Under the pieces are notes generated by a model. That model was not told the origin of the DNA. It was given only the letters and a program-made list of their open reading frames with translations, and ran no database searches. A DNA stretch of 64,000 bases from a virus. Lineage: Duplodnaviria > Caudoviricetes. Positions 40,748 to 53,484 of the stretch are shown piece after piece; within the stretch, counting starts at the first letter, position 1; each line of letters opens with the position of its first letter. A program made the position numbers and the translations under genes. The stretch lies in the IMG/VR virus record IMGVR_UViG_3300024297_000001. One strand, given 5' to 3'.

Positions 40748-41647
40748 TTATGTTCCTATGGCGTTACCAAACAAGTAAACGTGTACTCGTGCCGCCACAT
40801 TATATCCTCTCTGAAAAGCCATCTTTGCAACATCACCTGCCGTTGCAGTTTGCTCTTCTTCTCTGGCTCCTACAGGCATAACCCATACAGGCCATTCAAC
40901 GCCTTCTGCTCTAAATTTTTCTATAACAGAATCCATTTCATCCCATTGTCTTTGTTCAGAACCAACAACAAACTTTAATTGTCCTGCTTTAGATAGTTCT
41001 GCATATTCGCCAACTACTTCTGGAATAATTGCTTTTTTACTTTCTTCACCTGCTACTGTCCATAATTTAGGACTACAACTAAAGAATACTTCTTCATTAA
41101 TTCTTTTTACCCATTCTTTAAATGGATCTCTTAACTTCTGTGTGCCGTTAGTTTCAAACGTCATGCTATCAGGCAAGTTACCTTGTCTTTCAAGTTCTTC
41201 ATATATTCCAACACTTGCCGCCTGTCCTGTAACCATTAAAGGTTCACCGCCAGTAAAACATAAGTGTTGTCTTTGTTTACTCATAGGATGAAGAAACAAT
41301 CCTTCTGGATTGCTATCTGTTTTTAATATATCAACAATCTTATTTGCTAATACAGTAGGAGTTTCTTGTCCCATTAAGTGTTTATACTTCTTTGCCCAAG
41401 TATAAGAACTATCGCAACCTTTTTCCCATACAGGTAAGTCTTCAACTCTTTTTACTTGGCTTACGTCATAATCCAGGAACGGCAGGTCATATGTATCCGG
41501 GTTAGTTGGATCTACTTGACCAAAGCCGCTACACTGTAAGTTACACAAGAAGAATCTAATCCATGCTGTCGGAACACCAGTATAGTGTCCTTCACCTTGA
41601 ATGGAGTGAAATATCTCACTGTAATAATACTTCTTCTCAGTTGTCAT
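40748..41647 (-). CDS. queE: 7-carboxy-7-deazaguanine synthase (radical SAM) with extended Cys motif
   Basis: YSEIFHSIQGEG.YTGVPTAWIRFFLCNLQC...GCDS, FTGGEPL, FETNGT, SPKL, RVHVYLFGN; adjacent to folE. Confidence 0.9.
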   Translation of the reverse strand: MTTEKKYYYSEIFHSIQGEGHYTGVPTAWIRFFLCNLQCSGFGQVDPTNPDTYDLPFLDYDVSQVKRVEDLPVWEKGCDSSYTWAKKYKHLMGQETPTVLANKIVDILKTDSNPEGLFLHPMSKQRQHLCFTGGEPLMVTGQAASVGIYEELERQGNLPDSMTFETNGTQKLRDPFKEWVKRINEEVFFSCSPKLWTVAGEESKKAIIPEVVGEYAELSKAGQLKFVVGSEQRQWDEMDSVIEKFRAEGVEWPVWVMPVGAREEEQTATAGDVAKMAFQRGYNVAARVHVYLFGNAIGT

Positions 41648-43840: not shown

Positions 43841-44413
43841 TTAATATACTCCTACGTTTTCCCAAGGATAAACCAACCAGACGTCTTCCTCGGCTTTGTT
43901 AACTTCATGACAACTATAACTCACCTGGCTAAAGTTGCTGGCTAAATTTTCTGTAAGTGTAGCAAATTTTACACTGTTTCCCCATACCGCATTCCAGGCA
44001 ACATCTTCTTGTGGCAAACAACCACTTTGCCAATCATTCTTAATCCAATTAAATGTAGCACCAGTATCGTTGATGTCATCTACAATAAGTATCTTCTTTC
44101 TTAAACTTGGATCCCATCTTGAACCTGCAACCTTAGTTGTTGTACCTGTGGTATCTTCATTGTAACCAAATGCATCACTGGCCATCCAGGCGGCACTATC
44201 ATTATAGCCACCTTTCTCTCCATCACGTAAACTTACCTTAAGTGCTTCGCAACGTATTCCTGTCATGTTACTAATAATAGTTGCAGGAACATTACCACCT
44301 CGTGTAATGCCTACAATATAGTCAGGACGCCAATCGTCCTTGTACATCTGATTTATAATACTTTGACACATATTTTCTACGTCAGTCCAAGTATAATAAT
44401 GCTTCTTAACCAT
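43841..44413 (-). CDS. Type I phosphoribosyltransferase (Gpt-like)
   Basis: IVGITRGG, PRPP motif ILIVDDINDTGAT, WLVYPWE. Start at ATG 44413. Confidence 0.85.
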   Translation of the reverse strand: MVKKHYYTWTDVENMCQSIINQMYKDDWRPDYIVGITRGGNVPATIISNMTGIRCEALKVSLRDGEKGGYNDSAAWMASDAFGYNEDTTGTTTKVAGSRWDPSLRKKILIVDDINDTGATFNWIKNDWQSGCLPQEDVAWNAVWGNSVKFATLTENLASNFSQVSYSCHEVNKAEEDVWLVYPWENVGVY

Positions 44414-45038
44414 AGTTTCTCCTAATTTGTAATACGTCTTGATTACCTTGTTGAACAATTATTCCAGTACCGTTGCCTTTACCTGCCTCAACAAATTTAA
44501 GTGCAGGAACAAATCTTGCAGTGTTTCTAAATCCTGTAGCACTATGATTAATGCTACTCTTAAAGAAACAGAACCTGCCTGGTATTGGTGCGATACTTAA
44601 CACCAATGGATCTGTGTTTCCTTGTATATCTTGAAGTTTATATCCATCAAGATCATCTTTAGTAATATAGAACTTTGTTTCTCCTTTATCATCAGGCTTC
44701 CATGATGTATTGCAGTAATAAAGCAATGTCCAATCACAATCATCTTTGTGATAGTATGCATCTTCGCCTGTTGCAAAAAAGTTTAAGTTACTTCTACGGT
44801 ATTCTAATCCTTCAAGGTCTTTTAGTTTTTCATTAACTACGTTCCATAAAGTTTGCCATGAATGAGTAGGCTCAAAGTCAAAGCATTGTAATCCTGTAGG
44901 TGGTTGATCTGGATTGTCTCTCGTACCCCACTTAAACGGAACATCTTGAATATTCTTTTCAAGAGCACCTATAGTATTAGGTGTAAACACGTTATCGTAT
45001 GTTATTATAAGTCCGCCAAAGTAAGATGTTCTATCCAA
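44406..45038 (-). CDS. 2OG-Fe(II) oxygenase (prolyl-hydroxylase-like)
   Basis: YYHKD (HxD), LLYYCN..W....GET.F, FFKSSINHSA...RF. Confidence 0.8.
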   Translation of the reverse strand: MDRTSYFGGLIITYDNVFTPNTIGALEKNIQDVPFKWGTRDNPDQPPTGLQCFDFEPTHSWQTLWNVVNEKLKDLEGLEYRRSNLNFFATGEDAYYHKDDCDWTLLYYCNTSWKPDDKGETKFYITKDDLDGYKLQDIQGNTDPLVLSIAPIPGRFCFFKSSINHSATGFRNTARFVPALKFVEAGKGNGTGIIVQQGNQDVLQIRRNYG

Positions 45039-45549
45039 TGTTATTCTCCCGTTCGTTCAAGTATTCTTCATTATGAACCCATCTGTAACCTGCATTGGCC
45101 CATTCATTACCTGAGTTACCATATACGAAACGTACAAATCCCCATTCCTTTTCTTTACGTCCCATATAAAAAATACTCCAACAAGGTATTTCATTTCCAT
45201 CTTCGTCTTTAGCAAGTTCTAACCAATGTAAGTCATCTGCTTTTCTAAAACGGAAACTACCAGGTCCACGCCATACTTTTGTTGAACCAACGACAGCACC
45301 TTCCTGTGAATGTATTGGAATGTGTTCCCAATATCCACCTTTAATAATAAATGCTCCCCAATTCCAAGGATGATCATGCAATGTAGGTTCATCACTTACA
45401 AGAACCTTATGCAATGTAATATTGAAAGGAAACTTCTTTCTATCTTTTAGAAACAAGTAGTAACGAACAAGATATGGTATCTTGCCTGTTCTATCTGTAA
45501 TAACTCGGCGTCTTCCGAGCATGTCCATTATTTTAGAAAGGAAGTTCAT
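45031..45549 (-). CDS. Cupin-like protein
   Basis: LHDHPW...IIKGGYWEH...DLHWLEL His-rich cupin pattern. Confidence 0.6.
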   Translation of the reverse strand: MNFLSKIMDMLGRRRVITDRTGKIPYLVRYYLFLKDRKKFPFNITLHKVLVSDEPTLHDHPWNWGAFIIKGGYWEHIPIHSQEGAVVGSTKVWRGPGSFRFRKADDLHWLELAKDEDGNEIPCWSIFYMGRKEKEWGFVRFVYGNSGNEWANAGYRWVHNEEYLNERENNIG

Positions 45550-45835
45550 CTTTATAATCGTCTTTCACTAAATTGTATACTTCTAAAAATTTTTCATATT
45601 GTATTTTTAAAGCAGGATATTGTTTAATCATTTCTTGTACTTTGTATTCGCTTGGCCATGTTTCTTCTTTGTATGATGTGCCTGCAAAGTCAGTGTTAAT
45701 TGTTAATGGAGTAGTACCGTCTTGACCATCTAAGTCTGAAATGTCAAATGTGTATGTTGGTGTTTCACTCACTATGCCGCCAACTGTTTCACCACTGTAT
45801 GTAAGTGTATAATCAGTGCTATCATCGTCCATCAT
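45533..45835 (-). CDS. Hypothetical acidic protein
   Basis: ORF with SD GGAG; C-terminal YPAL..QYEKF..VYNLV. Confidence 0.6.
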   Translation of the reverse strand: MMDDDSTDYTLTYSGETVGGIVSETPTYTFDISDLDGQDGTTPLTINTDFAGTSYKEETWPSEYKVQEMIKQYPALKIQYEKFLEVYNLVKDDYKDELPF

Positions 45836-46877
45836 TATCTCCAATAGTTTTATATAATGCTTTTCCTGAAAAGAACTCGCCTTTCAGTTTATTAACTTGT
45901 TGTTGTACTTTTAGCAAGTACTTGTCATAGTTCTCAACATAATCTGTAATAAGATTCATTACTTTTTGTTTATGTTTTTTGTAACTATCTAAGTCTTGTG
46001 TCCATTCACTTGGATATAAAAACTCTGGCAATGCCATTTCACTGTAACTTAATCTATCTGGCATCATTGGCAATGCATCTACAAGAGCACCTTCATACCA
46101 ACTAATACCTAATGTTTCTTGTAAGTTAGCACTAAACACAACCTTTGCTTCACCTAATAAATTATGATATTCATTTTTAGTAAGTTCACGTTCTTGACAA
46201 ATAACAAATTCGTATTGTGTCATGCTTTCTTTTAAATCTCTAAATATATCAACTTGCTTCTCTGGAGCAATTCTATGCGGAAACAAAATCATGTTTTTCT
46301 TTGTCATGCCTTTGTACTGTGCAAAACTATTTGCCAAGTACTCCATAGGCCAACCTACTATGTTTGACTTTGTTAATAATGTTGGAAAACTTTGTATATA
46401 CAGTTGTTTATGAAACTCTGTTGCAAAAAAATTATTATCATAGCATTCATACATACTACGTTCTGCACTTCTACACCAATCAGCATCACCAATTAATCTT
46501 CCTAAGAAGTCTTGTGGATCATAACTGCCGGCGTGCCACATACCACCTACCTTAATCTTAACACCAAGTAATTCAGCCATATACTTTAATTGTATTACAG
46601 TTGGATTCCAAGCATCTGTGTATAGGAAGTAGTCGCCATCTTTAATTTCACCATTAGCAAATAGTCTGCTAATTTCTAACATTTGCTGAGACTTATAATT
46701 GTTAGTCCCTGCAAAGTTAAGGAATGCCCCAGGCGTTGTAGCCTGAGGCACTTCTCCGCCACTAATAACAACTACCTCAGAATTAGTTGCACGTTTCATT
46801 TGCTTTGGAAGATGTTCCTTCCACTGCTTTGTGTAACGTGTATCAACTGCTTCAATGTCTACGATGTAAATTGTCAT
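45822..46877 (-). CDS. GT-B glycosyltransferase (GT4-like)
   Basis: FPHRIAPEKQ (R...K) and QETLGISWYEG...PMMPDRLSYSEM (ExxGxxxxE nucleotide-sugar motif). Confidence 0.75.
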   Translation of the reverse strand: MTIYIVDIEAVDTRYTKQWKEHLPKQMKRATNSEVVVISGGEVPQATTPGAFLNFAGTNNYKSQQMLEISRLFANGEIKDGDYFLYTDAWNPTVIQLKYMAELLGVKIKVGGMWHAGSYDPQDFLGRLIGDADWCRSAERSMYECYDNNFFATEFHKQLYIQSFPTLLTKSNIVGWPMEYLANSFAQYKGMTKKNMILFPHRIAPEKQVDIFRDLKESMTQYEFVICQERELTKNEYHNLLGEAKVVFSANLQETLGISWYEGALVDALPMMPDRLSYSEMALPEFLYPSEWTQDLDSYKKHKQKVMNLITDYVENYDKYLLKVQQQVNKLKGEFFSGKALYKTIGDNDGR

Positions 46878-46887
46878 TAGTGTCTCC

Positions 46888-47490
46888 TTATTTTAGTGCA
46901 TACTTCTTTTGAAGTTGTTTCAACAATAGTCCGTATGCTGGTAGGAATACAATTAAGCCTACTGCAATTTTGAGTACAGTTTGTGATCCTGCAATCTCAA
47001 CCCAGTTAGCCGCCATGTATTCATCTGCCGAGTTATTAAATGCGACAGCAAAGAACGTATACGTGTCAATGATGTTCGCCGCGATAGTAGATACCGCAGG
47101 TGCTAACCACCAATTCTTTGTAAACGCTTCTCTAATGTATTGGAATACATATACATCAAGCATTGTACCAATAGCATAAGCCGTTGCCGAAGCAAAACCA
47201 ATACGCATTGCTACTGATTGTGGTGCTCCTTCTGCAAGTACAACTGCAATGGATCCAATGATTGCCAATGGATACGCCGCCGCGATTGTTGATCTTGCAA
47301 TATTTTTTCCAAGTAGTCTAACAGTCAAGTCCGTTGCTATTACAACTAATGGGAAAGTAAATGCCGCCCACGTTAGTTTCACACCTGCAATTTCTACAGG
47401 GATTGCCACCAACGCATTTGAAACAGTGATCACGATAACGTGAAGTGCCACTAATTTCATCAGCATACTTTTATCTACGTCTTTGAACAT
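46888..47490 (-). CDS. yhhQ: Queuosine-precursor (preQ0/preQ1) transporter
   Basis: HVIVITVSNALV..P...TWAAFTFP..VIATDLTVRLLG...AR; AYAIGTMLDVYVF; WWLAPAVST...IDT; closely follows the YhhQ pattern. Confidence 0.85.
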   Translation of the reverse strand: MFKDVDKSMLMKLVALHVIVITVSNALVAIPVEIAGVKLTWAAFTFPLVVIATDLTVRLLGKNIARSTIAAAYPLAIIGSIAVVLAEGAPQSVAMRIGFASATAYAIGTMLDVYVFQYIREAFTKNWWLAPAVSTIAANIIDTYTFFAVAFNNSADEYMAANWVEIAGSQTVLKIAVGLIVFLPAYGLLLKQLQKKYALK

Positions 47491-47724
47491 TTAAGTCCTC
47501 CTATACATCTTCTTTTTATTTGGCTTGTACTTAGGCTTCTTGCCTTGAGTGAACAAAACGTATGTTCTCCAAGCCTCGCTTTTGTTGTTATAAAGATCAC
47601 GTTCGTCAAAGCGATAAGAACGTCCGTAACCCGTTACCCAAGAAGTCTTTGAACAAAAGTCCTTGAATTTCTCGAGATCAGTGAACACCTGCTCATAGGC
47701 TTCACGATTAAATTTGAGTGACAT
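47491..47724 (-). CDS. Hypothetical protein (77 aa)
   Basis: SD AGAGG; abuts yhhQ. Confidence 0.6.
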   Translation of the reverse strand: MSLKFNREAYEQVFTDLEKFKDFCSKTSWVTGYGRSYRFDERDLYNNKSEAWRTYVLFTQGKKPKYKPNKKKMYRRT

Positions 47725-47736
47725 CGCATTTTTCCT

Positions 47737-48171
47737 CTATCTTGCATACTCAATATGGGCACCGTTTTCTCCATCTTCACTTACGTCAATATGGACTTCA
47801 CGGCCTGGGTGTTTAGCATTGATCTCTTTGTAAAGATCATCTGCCATCATTTCACAACTCTTATAATCTAACTCTAATGTTTTCTCCTCATAAAGTTTTT
47901 CTAACCATCTTTTAAATTGTATAAACTCGATATCTCTATCATTGTGTGTAACTGTGATTGCTACCTTAAAATGAAAGATGTGTCTGTGTGGATATCCTAA
48001 GAAACTAACATCATACTCATCACCTGTTGCAAGTGCTGGATCATCTAATGCCGCCGGATACTTGTGAATACCTTCCTTACGGAAAGTTACCCAAATCATT
48101 CGTTTTGCTGTATTCATAATTCTTGCCTTGTTGTCTTTATCTGATTGTTCTTTAATTAACTGATCTGTCAT
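47737..48171 (-). CDS. T-fold QueD-like protein with LxxxHRHxF motif (DpdL-like)
   Basis: SFLGYPHRHIFHFKV...RDIEFI.FK...SCEMMA...V.EDGENGA T-fold pattern. Start is 48171 or 48177. Confidence 0.75.
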   Translation of the reverse strand: MTDQLIKEQSDKDNKARIMNTAKRMIWVTFRKEGIHKYPAALDDPALATGDEYDVSFLGYPHRHIFHFKVAITVTHNDRDIEFIQFKRWLEKLYEEKTLELDYKSCEMMADDLYKEINAKHPGREVHIDVSEDGENGAHIEYAR

Positions 48172-48173
48172 AC

Positions 48174-49406
48174 TCATATTATAAAGCCTTTCGCCTCATT
48201 TGTCAATGGTTTTTCTTGATTTATTTTGGTTACCAAGTCATCGAATACGTTCAAAATATAATCTGTTTCGACTTTCTTAGTTTCATAAAAACTACAAAAT
48301 TTAATTGTAGTTGTCGAGTATTGCCAAATACCGCAGTTATTTAGGAATGCTCGAATTTCGTTTAGTGTCTTTACGTCTCTACCTTTGTCCATTTTACAAT
48401 TTAAGAAACTGTTTTTATATGATACATCAAAAGTTTCTACCTGTTCAAGTATCTCTGCAAGTTGCACCAAAAATTTTGTAACTTGATTTGTTACGTTAAA
48501 CATCAATTTATTTTTATCACAGTATTCAAGTGCGGCCACTACCGCAGTTGCTCCTACAGGATCTTGGCTACGTGAGTTACCAACTGCTATAGGCAATGCC
48601 CAACCTGTGTCTGTTGGCTTTGAAATCTTATCATACATCTCTTTTGAAAGGCAAGTGATTGCAAAAGAACTAAATCCACCTGCAAGTGCTTTACCAAAAC
48701 AAGCAATGTCAGGTTGTAGATTACGTTCCATGCTATGTGCGAAACTACCAAATCTATACATACCTGTAAATATTTCGTCAGCAATAATTTTATAATCGTA
48801 TTTGAATTTACCTTGTTTAATTTTCTTAATAAGTTCATCGGACATTTCACTAACACCGTTAAACCAACTTACAGTATCACACAATACGGCACAAATGTTT
48901 CCTTGGTGTTTTTCTAATACAGTTGTAAAGTCATCATCATAAAAGTCTACATACTCTACATCAGGAAGGTGTGTACTCCAACCTCTGTAATCACTCATTG
49001 CCCAACCACTTAAACTTCCGCTATGGAAACTTCCTTTACGTACAAGTACTTTGTTTTTCTTTTTATTGTTGTAGTATTGGAAACAAAACTTTAGTGCATT
49101 GTCTGTTGCATCACTTCCGCTATGTGCTGGAATGAATGCAAAATAATCTGGAAGTTTCTTTTGTAATATATCTTCTAACTTTGTCCATATCTCAGGTTTA
49201 GCATTCCAATCGTTGCTTGGCCAAACTCTATGTGCATGAGAAATATGATATTGTATGTATTCGTTGTTAAAGCCTAATACGTTGCAACCTTTACCTGCAC
49301 TAATGTCATAGTAGTTCTTTCCTTCCGAATCAATAAACCTTCCGTTAAAACTCGTAACAGTAGGCATTGTGTCAGTTGGATCGCAAAAACTATGCAGTAG
49401 TTTCAT
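48174..49406 (-). CDS. Class-III PLP aminotransferase
   Basis: YYDISAG.GCNVLG, SGSDATDNALK, GSFH, IIADEIFTGMYRFG, PDIACFGKALAGG. Confidence 0.9.
   Translation of the reverse strand: MKLLHSFCDPTDTMPTVTSFNGRFIDSEGKNYYDISAGKGCNVLGFNNEYIQYHISHAHRVWPSNDWNAKPEIWTKLEDILQKKLPDYFAFIPAHSGSDATDNALKFCFQYYNNKKKNKVLVRKGSFHSGSLSGWAMSDYRGWSTHLPDVEYVDFYDDDFTTVLEKHQGNICAVLCDTVSWFNGVSEMSDELIKKIKQGKFKYDYKIIADEIFTGMYRFGSFAHSMERNLQPDIACFGKALAGGFSSFAITCLSKEMYDKISKPTDTGWALPIAVGNSRSQDPVGATAVVAALEYCDKNKLMFNVTNQVTKFLVQLAEILEQVETFDVSYKNSFLNCKMDKGRDVKTLNEIRAFLNNCGIWQYSTTTIKFCSFYETKKVETDYILNVFDDLVTKINQEKPLTNEAKGFII
48178..48206 (-). promoter_or_regulatory. Consensus sigma70 promoter TTGACA-17-TATAAT, 6 nt before ATG 48171
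   Basis: Perfect hexamers embedded in the last codons of the aminotransferase gene. Confidence 0.75.
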
Positions 49407-49913
49407 TTAGTCCTCCGAGGGGCTATCGTCGCCGTACTTTGACCAATCTGTAAATTTATCCCATTGTAGTAACGGGTGAACTTGATGTACCCATACACCT
49501 GGATTAGAATGATCAAAATCAGCATCGTCAATCTTAATACAAGCATTGTAGTTAAGTTGTTTTACGTATGGTAGTTTAACACTAATCATACTAATAAAAT
49601 TATGTCTTTCATTGTAACCTGTTTCAAGTACCCAGTCATGATACTTTGCATCATAGTCAAGTGTTACAAGATATTTCTTGTCAAGCAATCCAAACACAAG
49701 ATCGTCCCAACTTTCTTTAGGAACAAAACTATGATTAGCACCTAAGTAAATATGATCTACTACGTGTTTCTTTGCTTGTGCTAATACATCTTCTAATGGT
49801 TGACAACCTGTAACAAACAATGTGTCCATACCTTCAGCAGGAGTTTTTTCAACTTCATAACCTGTAAAGTAGATTACATCATCTTTTACGCCATCTGCAT
49901 ATTGTCTTTCCAT
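49407..49913 (-). CDS. Hypothetical protein adjacent to the TGT-like gene
   Basis: SD AGAGG; FTGYEVEKTPAEGMDTLFV, HIYLGANHS and KIDD.DF..SNPGVW.H. Confidence 0.7.
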   Translation of the reverse strand: MERQYADGVKDDVIYFTGYEVEKTPAEGMDTLFVTGCQPLEDVLAQAKKHVVDHIYLGANHSFVPKESWDDLVFGLLDKKYLVTLDYDAKYHDWVLETGYNERHNFISMISVKLPYVKQLNYNACIKIDDADFDHSNPGVWVHQVHPLLQWDKFTDWSKYGDDSPSED

Positions 49914-49914
49914 A

Positions 49915-51375
49915 TTATTCCTCTGTAAATAAATTGCCAAACTGTGTTTGTGCGTTTACTGTTTTCTTTCCTGTTGCGCCACGTGTTCCAATAATTGACA
50001 TCCAGAACTTACTATAATGTTCAATTACTGCGTTCGCTTCATCTCTGCTGTCTGTTGCAAATATTGCCTCCACAACATCTCTAAAAAATAACCTGTCGAA
50101 CCGTTCCTCCACAAGCATGTTCGGAATGACTCCATTGTCGTATTGTCTATTTGCTTCTTGTACTGCATTAATATGACTCCATACATTATGACCCATCTGG
50201 ATCGCATATGAAAAACTATCCCAAGATGTTTTTCCTTCTTTGCCTATTTTGTTCAAGTCACCTTGTGCATACTTACAAATGTCTTGTGCAGTTAGTCCTG
50301 TTGTAATAGGCGAATCTTTAAAACTTGTATGCTTACCTTCTCTAACAAATGCTTGACTGAATGGCGTTGTATCAGTTGCTAATCCTTTATCATCAATGCT
50401 TGGCACCATTCTGTAAACCCATTTCTTACGATCTAATGTTTCAAGTTCGCAATAAATTTGTCCATTAGCAGTTGCTAAGAACGGACTTGCACAATCAAAC
50501 GTAATCATAAAGTTTGGATTATGATACTTACGTACTGCTCTTTGTATATCTGTAAGTAGTGTTGCCCACTCTAATTTACTTGTACCTAAGAAGTGCATTA
50601 CATCATGTACGCCTTTCTCAAGTAGTCCATCAAATCTAAGTGCAACAAGTCTTTTAAGAACAAGATGAATATCACACATATTCTGTCCACCCATACTCCA
50701 ACCATTAAAGTGTGTGCCAGGATACTTAACTGGATCACAATAGTCTTTCATTTGCTGATACCAATCTTCTGCGTCAGCATGATTTTCACCTTGTAATACA
50801 TTTAAGAATTTACAAGCACCACTTCTATGTTTCATAAAGTAGTCATTGTTAATACGTGTAGCATTAACGGCATCTTGATAATTGTCAATTCCAGTTGCTT
50901 TAGCACCTTCGGGAGACCGTGCTACCCAAGCCGGAATATCAAGTATCATTCCATAGTCCATATATGCGTCCATCCATCTAAGAACTTGTTCACGTTTCTT
51001 TTGTGCTTTAGGACAATTAGGATTCTTCCAATCGCCTTCCCATACACCTTTACCTATCTGGAAACCACCACTGTCACCTAACAACCAAGAAGTGTTACGA
51101 TCTCTATCTCGTACCATATCTTCTTTGGGTGCGTCCTTGTTAATATCAAGTTCGGCGTGACCTGCGGAATACAAACTCCATTGATACTCAAACAACGACT
51201 TACTCGGATTAAGCCAGTTCATGCTCTCAACACCATTTGTAAAGTGTTTAGGTATACGATTATATTCTACGTACTCCTCACGTCTTTGCTTACCTACAAA
51301 GGTTGCAAAGAAGCCACTCAGTGCTGGCAAGAAAGTTGCGTAATCTTTTTGTGCAGTTGTTAAGTTAGTATTCAA
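49915..51375 (-). CDS. dpdA: tRNA-guanine-transglycosylase-like protein, probable DNA 7-deazaguanine transglycosylase (DpdA-like)
   Basis: LLGDSGGFQ (TGT catalytic Asp motif), MILDIP, NVLQG, GWSMGG, HFLG, ITFDCASP, HN; clustered with folE, queE and yhhQ. Confidence 0.8.
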   Translation of the reverse strand: MNTNLTTAQKDYATFLPALSGFFATFVGKQRREEYVEYNRIPKHFTNGVESMNWLNPSKSLFEYQWSLYSAGHAELDINKDAPKEDMVRDRDRNTSWLLGDSGGFQIGKGVWEGDWKNPNCPKAQKKREQVLRWMDAYMDYGMILDIPAWVARSPEGAKATGIDNYQDAVNATRINNDYFMKHRSGACKFLNVLQGENHADAEDWYQQMKDYCDPVKYPGTHFNGWSMGGQNMCDIHLVLKRLVALRFDGLLEKGVHDVMHFLGTSKLEWATLLTDIQRAVRKYHNPNFMITFDCASPFLATANGQIYCELETLDRKKWVYRMVPSIDDKGLATDTTPFSQAFVREGKHTSFKDSPITTGLTAQDICKYAQGDLNKIGKEGKTSWDSFSYAIQMGHNVWSHINAVQEANRQYDNGVIPNMLVEERFDRLFFRDVVEAIFATDSRDEANAVIEHYSKFWMSIIGTRGATGKKTVNAQTQFGNLFTEE

Positions 51376-52333: not shown

Positions 52334-52362
52334 ATTATACTTACAAAATTATGATTTGTCAA
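52334..52362 (-). promoter_or_regulatory. Consensus sigma70 promoter TTGACA-17-TATAAT
   Basis: Perfect hexamers; the -35 lies in the last codons (LDKS*) of the epimerase gene. Confidence 0.8.
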
Positions 52363-53086
52363 GTGCTTTTTCCTGGCTGACGAATTCTAATGCATCAATT
52401 TTTGATTTCCAACCAATTGATGATAAATGACTAATGTCTGCGACATTGTCTTTACGTTCATGCTCGTCACCGTTTCTTTCTTCATAATTTTCTAAGCCTA
52501 CTGCTTTGCAGTAATCCGATAAAGGTCTTGACGTACCCGTTCCTACATCAATTACTCCTGTTAAATCACTTTCTAACAATTGAGTAACTGCTCTACACAC
52601 ATCAGATATATGTATAAAATCTCTTTTATGATCTACATTAATAAATGTAACTTCATTGTTTAATAATTTTGGTACAAACATATAGTCTCTACCTGCTCCA
52701 CCAATTACAGTTGTAAATCTCATACCTAAACTATCTTCAGGTGCAATACGTTCTACAACATATTTTGACATTGCATATGGATTTCTTTGTGGCTCTTTTG
52801 CAGTGCTTGAACTTGCATATAAGATCCTTGCATTTGGAAATGCTTTAAACAATCTATTTGATGCAACAACATTATTATCAAAATATTCTTGCGGAACTTC
52901 AAGGCTTTTTCTTACACCACTCATTGCCGCTAAATGAACTACTGCATCTACTTGATAATTTAACTCACAGTCAAGTAAGTCATTGCCAGACTTAATGTCA
53001 ATTGGTATTACGGTATGCATACCTGCCCAATACTTCTTAAGTACTGAACCTATCATTCCGTCACTACCTGTTAGTAATATTCTCAT
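52349..53086 (-). CDS. NAD-dependent epimerase/dehydratase
   Basis: LTGSDGMIG, VVHLAA, YASSS, YAMSK (YxxxK), MRF.TV.G. Confidence 0.9.
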   Translation of the reverse strand: MRILLTGSDGMIGSVLKKYWAGMHTVIPIDIKSGNDLLDCELNYQVDAVVHLAAMSGVRKSLEVPQEYFDNNVVASNRLFKAFPNARILYASSSTAKEPQRNPYAMSKYVVERIAPEDSLGMRFTTVIGGAGRDYMFVPKLLNNEVTFINVDHKRDFIHISDVCRAVTQLLESDLTGVIDVGTGTSRPLSDYCKAVGLENYEERNGDEHERKDNVADISHLSSIGWKSKIDALEFVSQEKALDKS

Positions 53087-53484
53087 TATGTTATTTCCTC
53101 CTCGATGTATCTTTTTAATTCATGGTCTTGTACATCGTTTGGTATATTATTTTTATAAAAGATCTGATAACTATCCGAACCATACTTGCCTACGCCATAT
53201 AGTTTAGTAGCATCTTCTCCGTCCCAATTTAAAAAGTCTTTTGACATTTGTCTAATTGTGTTTTCACGTCTATTATAAAAGCCTAAACTCTTAATAACTT
53301 CTATTACAGTTTTCCTATCGCTTTTTAAATACTTTTGTGGAGTAGGCCATTTGTCAAAGAACTCTGGTAATACTCTTTTAACCTGTACCCTACCTGTTTG
53401 ATTCAAACAAATAACACCTACAAAGTGTTGCCATAAGTTAGCAACCTGTTGTTGTACCATTAAATCAGGATCCATTATTTTCAT
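53086..53484 (-). CDS. HhH-GPD DNA glycosylase, MBD4-catalytic-domain-like
   Basis: W....VICLNQT, FF.KWPTP, LGFYNRR, LYGVGKYGSDSYQIF, VQDHELKRY. Confidence 0.8.
   Translation of the reverse strand: MKIMDPDLMVQQQVANLWQHFVGVICLNQTGRVQVKRVLPEFFDKWPTPQKYLKSDRKTVIEVIKSLGFYNRRENTIRQMSKDFLNWDGEDATKLYGVGKYGSDSYQIFYKNNIPNDVQDHELKRYIEEEIT

Follow-up and report, generated by a model that had tools for sequence, protein, structure and literature searches.

The glycosyltransferase (GT) gene considered here, P0001, lies in a stretch of 64,000 nucleotides (hereafter the window) from a virus of the Caudoviricetes (Duplodnaviria) recorded in IMG/VR as IMGVR_UViG_3300024297_000001. The GC content of the window is about 0.35, and the gene belongs to a phage-like replication region that contains a family-B polymerase, an RNase H-like exonuclease and a DEDD exonuclease. 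A megablast search with 14 kb of the window against cultured phages gave no match and thus no close cultured relative. A first-pass annotation, made from the letters alone, had placed the GT directly downstream of yhhQ within a run of deazaguanine genes and had proposed that it adds a sugar to a 7-substituted deazaguanine in phage DNA. The placement is correct: 10 nt separate the stop codon of yhhQ from the ATG of the GT, and a GGAG motif lies 8 nt before that ATG. The deazaguanine run is likewise real, with FolE, a weak QueE, DpdL and a DpdA-like gene of the tRNA-guanine transglycosylase (TGT) fold, and so is the NAD epimerase that had been noted at 52349. The genes and open reading frames (ORFs) on which the following argument draws are listed below.

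40748-41647, minus strand: QueE-like radical SAM 7-carboxy-7-deazaguanine (CDG) synthase, with weak matches to TIGR04322/TIGR03963
41660-42343, minus strand: FolE, GTP cyclohydrolase I (PF01227, E 2.9e-37)
43841-44458, minus strand: 6-oxopurine phosphoribosyltransferase (PRTase)-like gene (PF00156; best PDB matches are purine/HGPRT PRTases)
45031-45549, minus strand: HDHPW cupin-like ORF, downstream of the GT
45822-46877, minus strand: GT4-like GT-B glycosyltransferase P0001, 351 amino acids (aa), named from its fold and motifs
46888-47490, minus strand: homologue of YhhQ/Vut_1, a 7-deazaguanine-precursor transporter, 200 aa (PF02592, E 2.5e-24, 86.8 bits)
47491-47724, minus strand: basic 77-aa ORF (p77) between DpdL and yhhQ/GT, no family match
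47737-48177, minus strand: DpdL, QueD-like T-fold protein and proposed CDG decarboxylase (phrog_17812)
48174-49406, minus strand: class-III aminotransferase, an accessory insert (PF00202, E 3e-34)
49407-49913, minus strand: orphan of ~168-177 aa, tightly coupled to the DpdA stop codon, no family match
49915-51375, minus strand: DpdA-like DNA guanine transglycosylase, 486 aa, TGT fold, DSGGFQ at residue 101
52349-53086, minus strand: short NAD-dependent epimerase/dehydratase-family short-chain dehydrogenase/reductase (SDR) (PF01370, E 4.5e-20)

The assignment of P0001 as a glycosyltransferase comes from its structure. At E <= 0.01 it matched nothing in Pfam, PHROG, NCBIfam or PADLOC, and a single-sequence search of the PDB gave no match, but an AlphaFold2 (AF2) model built on 51 homologues has a mean predicted local distance difference test score (pLDDT) of 95.3 and a predicted template modelling score (pTM) of 0.92. 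Foldseek returned 498 PDB matches at E <= 1e-3, of which the 50 listed are all GT-B enzymes, with E values of ~1e-10 for glycogen synthase, BshA, MshA and GlgM, and VIA-align gave Z scores of 22-27 over 290-328 aligned residues for sucrose-phosphate synthase, BshA, MshA, GlgM and PglA. These full-length matches to solved enzymes place P0001 in the GT-B superfamily, and AF2, Foldseek and VIA-align agree on the GT-B/GT4-like fold. The ExxGxxxxE motif pointed out in the annotation exists as E254-T-L-G-I-S-W-Y-E262 and is kept across the 51 homologues, where E262 is invariant and E254 and G257 are conserved in at least 90%. R202 and K207 sit in an FPHRxxPEK motif that is conserved through the family, and a profile search maps both FPHRxxPEK and SxxLQETLGIxxxE onto the solved GT 8xsg (E 5e-5). 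P0001 therefore has the EX7E motif of GT4 enzymes and the R/K pair that, in their C-terminal domain, binds the diphosphate of the nucleoside diphosphate (NDP)-sugar donor. Because these conserved donor-site motifs align onto 8xsg, the modelled enzyme looks catalytically competent, NDP-sugar-dependent and of the retaining type. Membership in Glycos_transf_1-type families (PF00534/PF13439) was not found, and relatives also remained sub-threshold (E 0.0038 for a homologue in locus L109). The earlier label "GT4-like" thus holds for fold and motifs and fails as a sequence-family match; it rests on the former because no family model recognizes P0001, which, judged by sequence, belongs to a family of its own whose fold and motifs are GT4-like.

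The N-terminal, acceptor-side domain of the enzyme (residues 1-170) is as conserved across phages as the donor domain, with 21 columns conserved in at least 90% of sequences vs 19. The conserved N-domain set, which is specific to the family, consists of E9, R14, Y15, W19, Q65, D88 and W90, while the usual Gly-rich loop is absent. Since the phages compared infect unrelated hosts, such conservation speaks for a single acceptor shared by all of them and against glycans particular to each host. The family is large, with more than 8,000 homologues, or ~1,240 clusters at 50% identity (E <= 1e-3), which are mostly marine and lie on contigs of up to 405 kb; a search for fused forms of 616-2000 aa found none. 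A predicted complex of the GT with three copies of DpdL, run without controls, scored 0.00, a value that has no bearing on binding either way.

The genomic surroundings of the family carry the main finding of this study. Among 80 marine loci from IMG/VR whose GTs are 66-87% identical to P0001 (the counts that follow use only loci with enough flanking sequence), the typical gene order is polB-epimerase-p242-DpdA-orphan-DpdL-(p77)-GT-...-PRTase-(HIT)-FolE-QueE-RNase H. DpdL precedes the GT in 61/61 relatives with a median DpdL-(p77)-GT gap of 243 nt, a DpdA-like gene lies within 5.5 kb of the GT in 59 of the 61, the DpdA-coupled orphan is present in every one (61/61), and all 49 relatives with sufficient downstream sequence carry the PRTase. 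By comparison, p77 lies between DpdL and the GT in 41/61, the epimerase occurs in 45/61 and the HDHPW cupin in 33/49, and yhhQ and the class-III aminotransferase were found in only 1/61 and 2/61, respectively. The conserved neighbour of the GT among the phage relatives is DpdL, not yhhQ. From its distribution, yhhQ is a recent insertion common to the window and its nearest relative alone, and both yhhQ and the aminotransferase, confined to the window and to one (yhhQ) or two (aminotransferase) of the 61 relatives, have the look of recent accessory insertions. The annotation had suggested checking the co-occurrence of the GT with dpdA and yhhQ across phage genomes; the association is as expected for the dpd genes and fails for yhhQ in phages, though the latter recurs in bacteria.

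The same association extends to cultured phages. A tblastn search found the GT, at 25-48% identity, in five cultured lineages (Sinorhizobium phage Phosso; the PA5oct group; Acidovorax phage ACP17; Xanthomonas phages BUDD and X1; Burkholderia phage BCSR5), always inside a FolE/QueE/DpdL/DpdA cluster. It adjoins DpdA in PA5oct, where gp167 is the GT and gp168 the DpdA-like protein, and in ACP17, BUDD and BCSR5; it adjoins DpdL in Phosso, PA5oct and ACP17. The stop and start codons of the adjoining genes often overlap, and in BUDD and BCSR5 DpdL lies elsewhere in the same locus. The ACP17 GT, gp124, is encoded exactly between the DpdL and DpdA genes. Divergent metagenome members at 27-33% identity show related arrangements, namely, DpdL|GT...DpdA in contig L090, FolE...GT|DpdL in L092 and QueE-FolE-DpdL...GT|DpdA-deacetylase...QueD in L100; in the 5.5-kb contig L101, no recognizable dpd neighbour was seen. 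Conversely, several DpdL-bearing phages, including the phiST group, RHph_I1_18 and Ahp1_CNU-2021, lack the GT. Because every cultured GT-bearing lineage with full-length similarity carries DpdL and several DpdL-bearing lineages have no GT, the distribution is nested: the GT depends on the deazaguanine module, whereas the module can do without the GT. Such nesting is the pattern that would be expected of a step downstream of the base pathway, by analogy with glucosylation relative to hydroxymethylcytosine (hmC) in T-even phages. A more distant relative of the GT (24% identity) occurs in PhiXhv/Ep032-type phages with GlmS and a deacetylase and without DpdL. In Xanthomonas phage PhiXhv-15 (L006:6225-6833), an LmbE-type deacetylase and GlmS precede this distant relative, and a polysaccharide deacetylase (PF01522) directly follows the GT-DpdA pair at L100:10303-11073. 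The deacetylases near the GT hint, as a lead only, at an amino-sugar logic in some lineages, in which transfer of N-acetylglucosamine (GlcNAc) would be followed by deacetylation as with BshA/BshB.

In 35 loci from bacteria and metagenome-assembled genomes (MAGs) with a substantial match to the GT, DpdA and/or DpdL lies within a few kb of it in 33, the exceptions being two short contigs, and DpdA is present in 28. Isolates of the alphaproteobacteria (Ochrobactrum, Methylobacterium, Pelagibacterium, Devosia, Azospirillum, Shimia, Sulfitobacter, Thalassobius and Aurantimonas) possess compact cassettes of the form DpdA-YhhQ-(DpdL)-GT or YhhQ-GT-DpdA, and at least 13 of the 17 alphaproteobacterial islands independently show YhhQ and the GT side by side. 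Islands of this type flanked by integrase genes include L109:641-13823 (Ochrobactrum sp. MYb379), L110, L112, L115 and L118. The Ochrobactrum cassette is situated between a GmrSD type IV restriction gene and the integrase, the Shimia cassette is located beside an integrase and an ABC-3C system, and the three-gene cassettes (DpdA-YhhQ-GT) in integrase-flanked islands encode no other acceptor. None of the cassettes matched a PADLOC model. From gene content, these islands look like an undescribed deazaguanine-based modification, perhaps restriction, system. They also hold conserved uncharacterized proteins of ~840-853 aa and 377-411 aa, and in Shimia ponticola a second glycosyltransferase, of the GT1 family (PF00534, sub-threshold), is encoded ~3 kb from the YhhQ-GT-DpdA cassette (L118:12275-13471, minus strand).

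Taken as comparative evidence, which is very strong here, this distribution argues that the GT belongs to a 7-deazaguanine DNA-modification cassette and that its family almost never occurs away from deazaguanine genes. An occurrence of the GT independent of dpd genes, which the annotation had named as evidence against its own proposal, did not emerge from the marine, cultured-phage, metagenome or bacterial loci. By its predicted genes, the cassette is composed of a large DpdA of the TGT fold with a DSGGxQ motif, usually DpdL and often YhhQ, together with FolE and QueE in phages.

The individual members of the module in the window are recognized with differing ease. YhhQ scores 106.9 bits against TIGR00697 ("queuosine precursor transporter"; cut-off 50.95), which assigns it to the COG1738 family, and 192 bits against NF008406, under the cut-off of 252. 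The LGYPHRHIF sequence of DpdL fits the pattern LxxxHRHxF, which replaces CxxxHGH, and H64-R65-H66-I67-F68 are invariant in 15 sequences; the protein is 34-70% identical to the DpdL proteins of phiST, ACP17, PA5oct and Phosso (34% for phiST and 54% for ACP17). LxxxHRHxF is the DpdL signature, and DpdL is a candidate CDG decarboxylase whose activity is unproven (Cui, Hutinet et al. 2023, PMC10516641). The QueE-like protein is 38% identical to the "QueE-like" gp162 of PA5oct. The DpdA-like protein gave nothing in Pfam and PDB sequence or profile searches and its AF2 model reaches a pLDDT of only 65.8, but its top 50 Foldseek matches in the PDB are all tRNA-guanine transglycosylases (E 6e-6 to 5e-5, TM-score about 0.4-0.5), it is 36% identical to PA5oct gp168 (E 1e-91), and its DSGGxQ motif is common to every GT-linked DpdA. 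With this modelled TGT fold and the motif, the gene at 49915-51375 is read as a DpdA-type DNA transglycosylase. The orphan coupled to it found neither a PDB nor a family match and shares 35% identity with the ORF that immediately precedes DpdA in ACP17; it is a candidate for a second missing component of the pathway. The PRTase could turn the guanine set free by DpdA back into GMP, or it could ribosylate a deazaguanine base. A stand-alone 132-aa protein with an HhH-GPD DNA glycosylase domain is encoded near the polymerase/deazaguanine region (53086-53484, minus strand), and its position varies among many relatives.

A perfect sigma-70 consensus, TTGACA-17-TATAAT (12/12), is located directly upstream of DpdL (48178-48206, minus strand), and no strong terminator-like site was detected from DpdL to the start of the GT. 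Because of that promoter, DpdL, p77, yhhQ and the GT look like one operon, which is likely, as far as sequence can tell, an early one. A second 12/12 promoter is found at 52334-52362 (minus strand), just before the block of the clamp-like p242 and DpdA, both promoters falling within 9.5 kb; together they suggest that the modification genes are transcribed early by the host RNA polymerase. A 12-bp GC-rich hairpin with a T-rich tail is present on the coding strand inside the 5' part of the GT ORF (46723-46752, minus strand). Six terminator-like sites were found vs 4.1 expected in shuffled sequences, and the hairpin may therefore be a chance occurrence.

The genes suggest the following route. FolE, a QueD encoded elsewhere and QueE would produce CDG in the absence of QueC, since no QueC was found among the ORFs scanned, nor above cut-off in the contigs of three relatives (119-257 kb), two of which encode a canonical 6-pyruvoyltetrahydropterin synthase (PTPS)/QueD ~60 kb away. 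That QueC was not found while DpdL is present leads us to a QueC-free, DpdL-type pathway, in which DpdL would convert CDG, presumably into 7-deazaguanine (DG); alternatively, DpdL in GT-bearing systems may do something other than simple decarboxylation. In Cellulophaga phage phiST, a DpdL-type pathway without QueC yields 2'-deoxy-7-deazaguanosine (dDG; PMC10516641). YhhQ might import deazaguanine bases, and the DpdA-like enzyme would exchange guanine in phage DNA for the deazaguanine. The GT, probably transcribed together with DpdL from the early sigma-70-type promoter, would then transfer the sugar moiety of an NDP-sugar to the deazaguanine in DNA, where the sugar may provide a second layer of protection in the manner of the T4 alpha-glucosyltransferase acting on hmC. 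The candidate acceptor atoms are N2, the only position with a biochemical precedent (HuiG), and C7 or C8, at which glycosylation would represent new chemistry. The "7-substituted" acceptor of the annotation has to be abandoned, since a pathway with DpdL and without QueC is expected to give the bare base with no substituent at C7.

We estimate the probability of this reading, in which P0001 acts as the GT of the cassette and transfers a sugar to the inserted 7-deazaguanine in DNA, at roughly 0.48; the fold, the conserved donor-site residues, the gene linkage across phages and bacteria and the operon layout are shown, whereas deazaguanine as the acceptor, its glycosylation within DNA instead of in the free state, and the atom used are inferred. 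Several points weigh against it. The main difficulty is that the expected 7-deazaguanine has neither an exocyclic hydroxyl nor an amine at C7, and no hydroxylase is universally linked to the GT. To our knowledge, GT4 enzymes do not act on DNA; the P0001 model shows no special similarity to the T4 alpha- or beta-GT, and the "alpha-GT" of cyanophage S-TIM5 comes no higher than rank 49 among the BFVD matches. HuiG, the only precedent for glycosylating a 7-deazaguanine base, works on the free base, and gene linkage cannot separate an acceptor in DNA from one at the precursor level. Hydroxylation by the HDHPW cupin followed by glycosylation was considered as a way around the missing hydroxyl and was rejected: outside the marine relatives, tblastn, which could miss distant cupins, gave no match in the five cultured phage lineages, and among the bacterial and MAG loci the cupin occurs only in L102, L103 and L108, which have phage-like gene content, and not in the alphaproteobacterial islands. 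The idea that the epimerase and the aminotransferase are dedicated donor-sugar enzymes was also given up, the former being lineage-restricted and the latter rare. The epimerase noted in the annotation is real, but the gene is not part of the conserved core: beyond the marine lineage it has no clear counterpart, with one weak partial match in PA5oct (E 6e-4), and its product is a possible, lineage-specific donor-sugar enzyme at most. The acidic pI of P0001, by contrast, is no obstacle to a role in DNA because T4 alpha-GT is acidic too (pI 6.1), and the objection built on it was dropped.

If the sugar is not added in DNA, it might be added earlier. The GT might glycosylate the free deazaguanine base or nucleotide (CDG, DG or a base taken up from outside) ahead of its insertion into DNA or in place of it, and the product might be the true substrate of DpdA, a storage or transport form, or a small-molecule effector. 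HuiG, a GT4-family enzyme (PF13439), does use the 2-amino group of a free preQ0 derivative as the acceptor for GlcNAc, and P0001 has as neighbours the base transporter YhhQ and DpdL, a T-fold enzyme that processes bases. The PRTase shared by all the marine relatives indicates that base or nucleotide chemistry occurs in the module, and Asp, Glu and aromatic residues abound in the conserved N-domain, as they would in a purine-binding pocket. However, enzymes of the TGT family require N9 of the incoming base to be free and recognize its 2-amino group, so that a glycosylated base is unlikely to be a DpdA substrate, and the strict link to DpdA, seen in most of the bacterial and MAG loci, is unexplained unless DNA is the end point. 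We therefore regard action on a precursor as unlikely, though the strongest of the alternatives. The GT might also merely aid base exchange by DpdA, through delivery of the base, DNA handling or glycosylation of a partner protein, and decorate no base. Bacterial DpdA needs DpdB, which offers a loose parallel, and no DpdB-like partner is seen in the three-gene cassettes; in PA5oct, ACP17 and L100, the ORFs of the GT and DpdA share their start and stop codons in an overlap, and ACP17 DpdA and DpdL alone are inactive in Escherichia coli (PMC10516641). Yet the donor-site residues R202, K207, E254 and E262 are conserved family-wide, which points to real sugar transfer, and phiST replaces all of its G with dDG without any GT, making a purely accessory role improbable.

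The acceptor might instead be unrelated to deazaguanine, such as another DNA base, a host envelope polymer or a protein, with the GT simply travelling with DpdA among anti-restriction and defence genes. The usual acceptors of GT4 enzymes are sugars, lipids, small acids and teichoic acids, and both the distant relative in the PhiXhv/Ep032-type phages, encoded beside GlmS and a deacetylase without DpdL, and the GT of L101, with no dpd neighbour in 5.5 kb, are compatible with such a history. Against this, the adjacency holds down to 27% identity and across phages and islands of otherwise unrelated gene content, the acceptor domain is conserved though the hosts span from Pseudomonas to marine bacteria, and the GT shares an early promoter with DpdL; we consider this proposal about as improbable as an accessory role. 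The presence of FolE, a T-fold protein and an SDR could also bring to mind a glycosylated pterin, made by FolE, a PTPS-like DpdL, the SDR and the GT in the manner of the cyanobacterial BGluT pathway, and a tetrahydrobiopterin glucosyltransferase (9v0l) is indeed among the Foldseek matches. But 9v0l, at rank 37, is no closer than dozens of GT4 enzymes and falls outside the VIA top 50, the catalytic Cys of PTPS/QueD is missing from DpdL, the GT is a neighbour of DpdA and, in the bacterial cassettes, is accompanied by neither FolE nor an SDR, and DpdL of phiST is tied to dDG in DNA. A pterin glycoside thus seems very improbable.

Glycosylation of the inserted base, if it takes place, would add a new member to the known DNA modifications. 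All natural DNA glycosylation known to us is on pyrimidines, as in glucosyl- and arabinosyl-hmC, base J and the sugar-modified thymidines. The annotation knew of no description of a sugar on a deazaguanine in DNA, and a search of open-access literature for a GT tied to DpdA or to DNA deazaguanine found none; Cui et al. (2023, PMC10516641) list eight DNA bases of the 7-deazaguanine type, all without a sugar. The product would be the first sugar-bearing purine analogue in DNA. As an obligate companion of one DpdA clade, the GT would join the themes of DNA glycosylation and deazaguanine modification, and it predicts a new base. It also offers a candidate for two earlier observations. The DNA of PA5oct, a therapeutic jumbo phage, resists cleavage at restriction sites containing G, where the base is unidentified and a modified G was inferred from homologues of QueE and QueD without mass spectrometry (PMC12191111), and DpdL and DpdA of ACP17 gave no dDG in E. 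coli, for which other enzymes may be needed (PMC10516641). The GT might contribute to the modified G of the former and be missing from the failed reconstitution of the latter.

Somewhat more tentatively than we hold the role of P0001 itself, we suggest that a glycosylated 7-deazaguanine replacing guanine is a widespread, undescribed hypermodification in marine jumbo phages, PA5oct-like and ACP17-like phages and some alphaproteobacteria. A portable DpdA-(YhhQ)-(DpdL)-GT cassette would make it, possibly by a chemistry without precedent, in which a GT4-type enzyme carries out N2- or C-glycosylation of a deazapurine in duplex DNA. Given the abundance of the GT family in ocean metagenomes, the predicted base could be common in marine viral DNA, and in that case it would affect sequencing, restriction-based methods and the interplay of defence and counter-defence, which involves GmrSD-type and END-type nucleases and DNA glycosylases. 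The bacterial DpdA-YhhQ-GT islands, moreover, suggest a new self-marking system.

Among systems that glycosylate DNA, the alpha- and beta-GTs of T4 resemble P0001 in their GT-B fold, in early expression and in the location of the gene beside a base-modifying enzyme in a replication cluster. T4 b-gt adjoins gene 42, T4 beta-GT is also 351 aa long, and T4 alpha-GT is acidic and retaining. P0001 is nevertheless not of the T4 type: BLASTP against T4 a-gt and b-gt gave E > 0.6, a profile found no match, and P0001 matched no Pfam-A model, a result that covers the T4 GT families only if the library holds them. Its structural neighbours are GT4 enzymes, and its proposed acceptor is a purine analogue rather than hmC. 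Among those neighbours, BshA and MshA are the best structural matches (Z 25-26) and share the same EX7E and R/K donor motifs. These enzymes transfer GlcNAc to malate or inositol phosphate, after which a deacetylase acts. They are only 9-12% identical to P0001, the N-domain of which lacks the usual Gly-rich loop, and their genomic context is entirely different.

HuiG of huimycin biosynthesis comes closer in chemistry, as a GT4-type GT-B enzyme that uses UDP-GlcNAc to place a sugar on the 2-amino group of a 7-deazaguanine-type base. It differs in that it acts on the free base, in actinomycete secondary metabolism, from clusters without dpdA. The bacterial Dpd system (dpdA-K), which puts preQ0 or 7-amido-7-deazaguanine (ADG) into DNA, is a chromosomal island whose DpdA inserts a 7-deazaguanine into host DNA; the alphaproteobacterial cassettes likewise encode a DpdA and lie in integrase-flanked islands, beside the defence genes GmrSD and ABC-3C. 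The cassettes, unmatched in PADLOC, possess a DpdA of another clade and have the GT and YhhQ instead of DpdB and DpdC.

The closest known system is the DpdL/DpdA3 system of phiST, which makes dDG from FolE, QueD, QueE, DpdL and a TGT-like transglycosylase without QueC, encoded beside replication genes (PMC10516641). The window has all of these components except QueD, which its relatives encode elsewhere. The transglycosylases differ, as DpdA3 of phiST is a short protein of 259 aa without DSGGxQ and shows no detectable similarity to the 486-aa DpdA-like protein of the window; a profile of the DpdA clade of the latter matched ACP17 DpdA weakly (E 2e-5) and reached only E 0.79 with DpdA3. phiST has no homologue of the GT, which, like the DpdA-coupled orphan and the purine PRTase, is an addition to the common base pathway in the window and its relatives.

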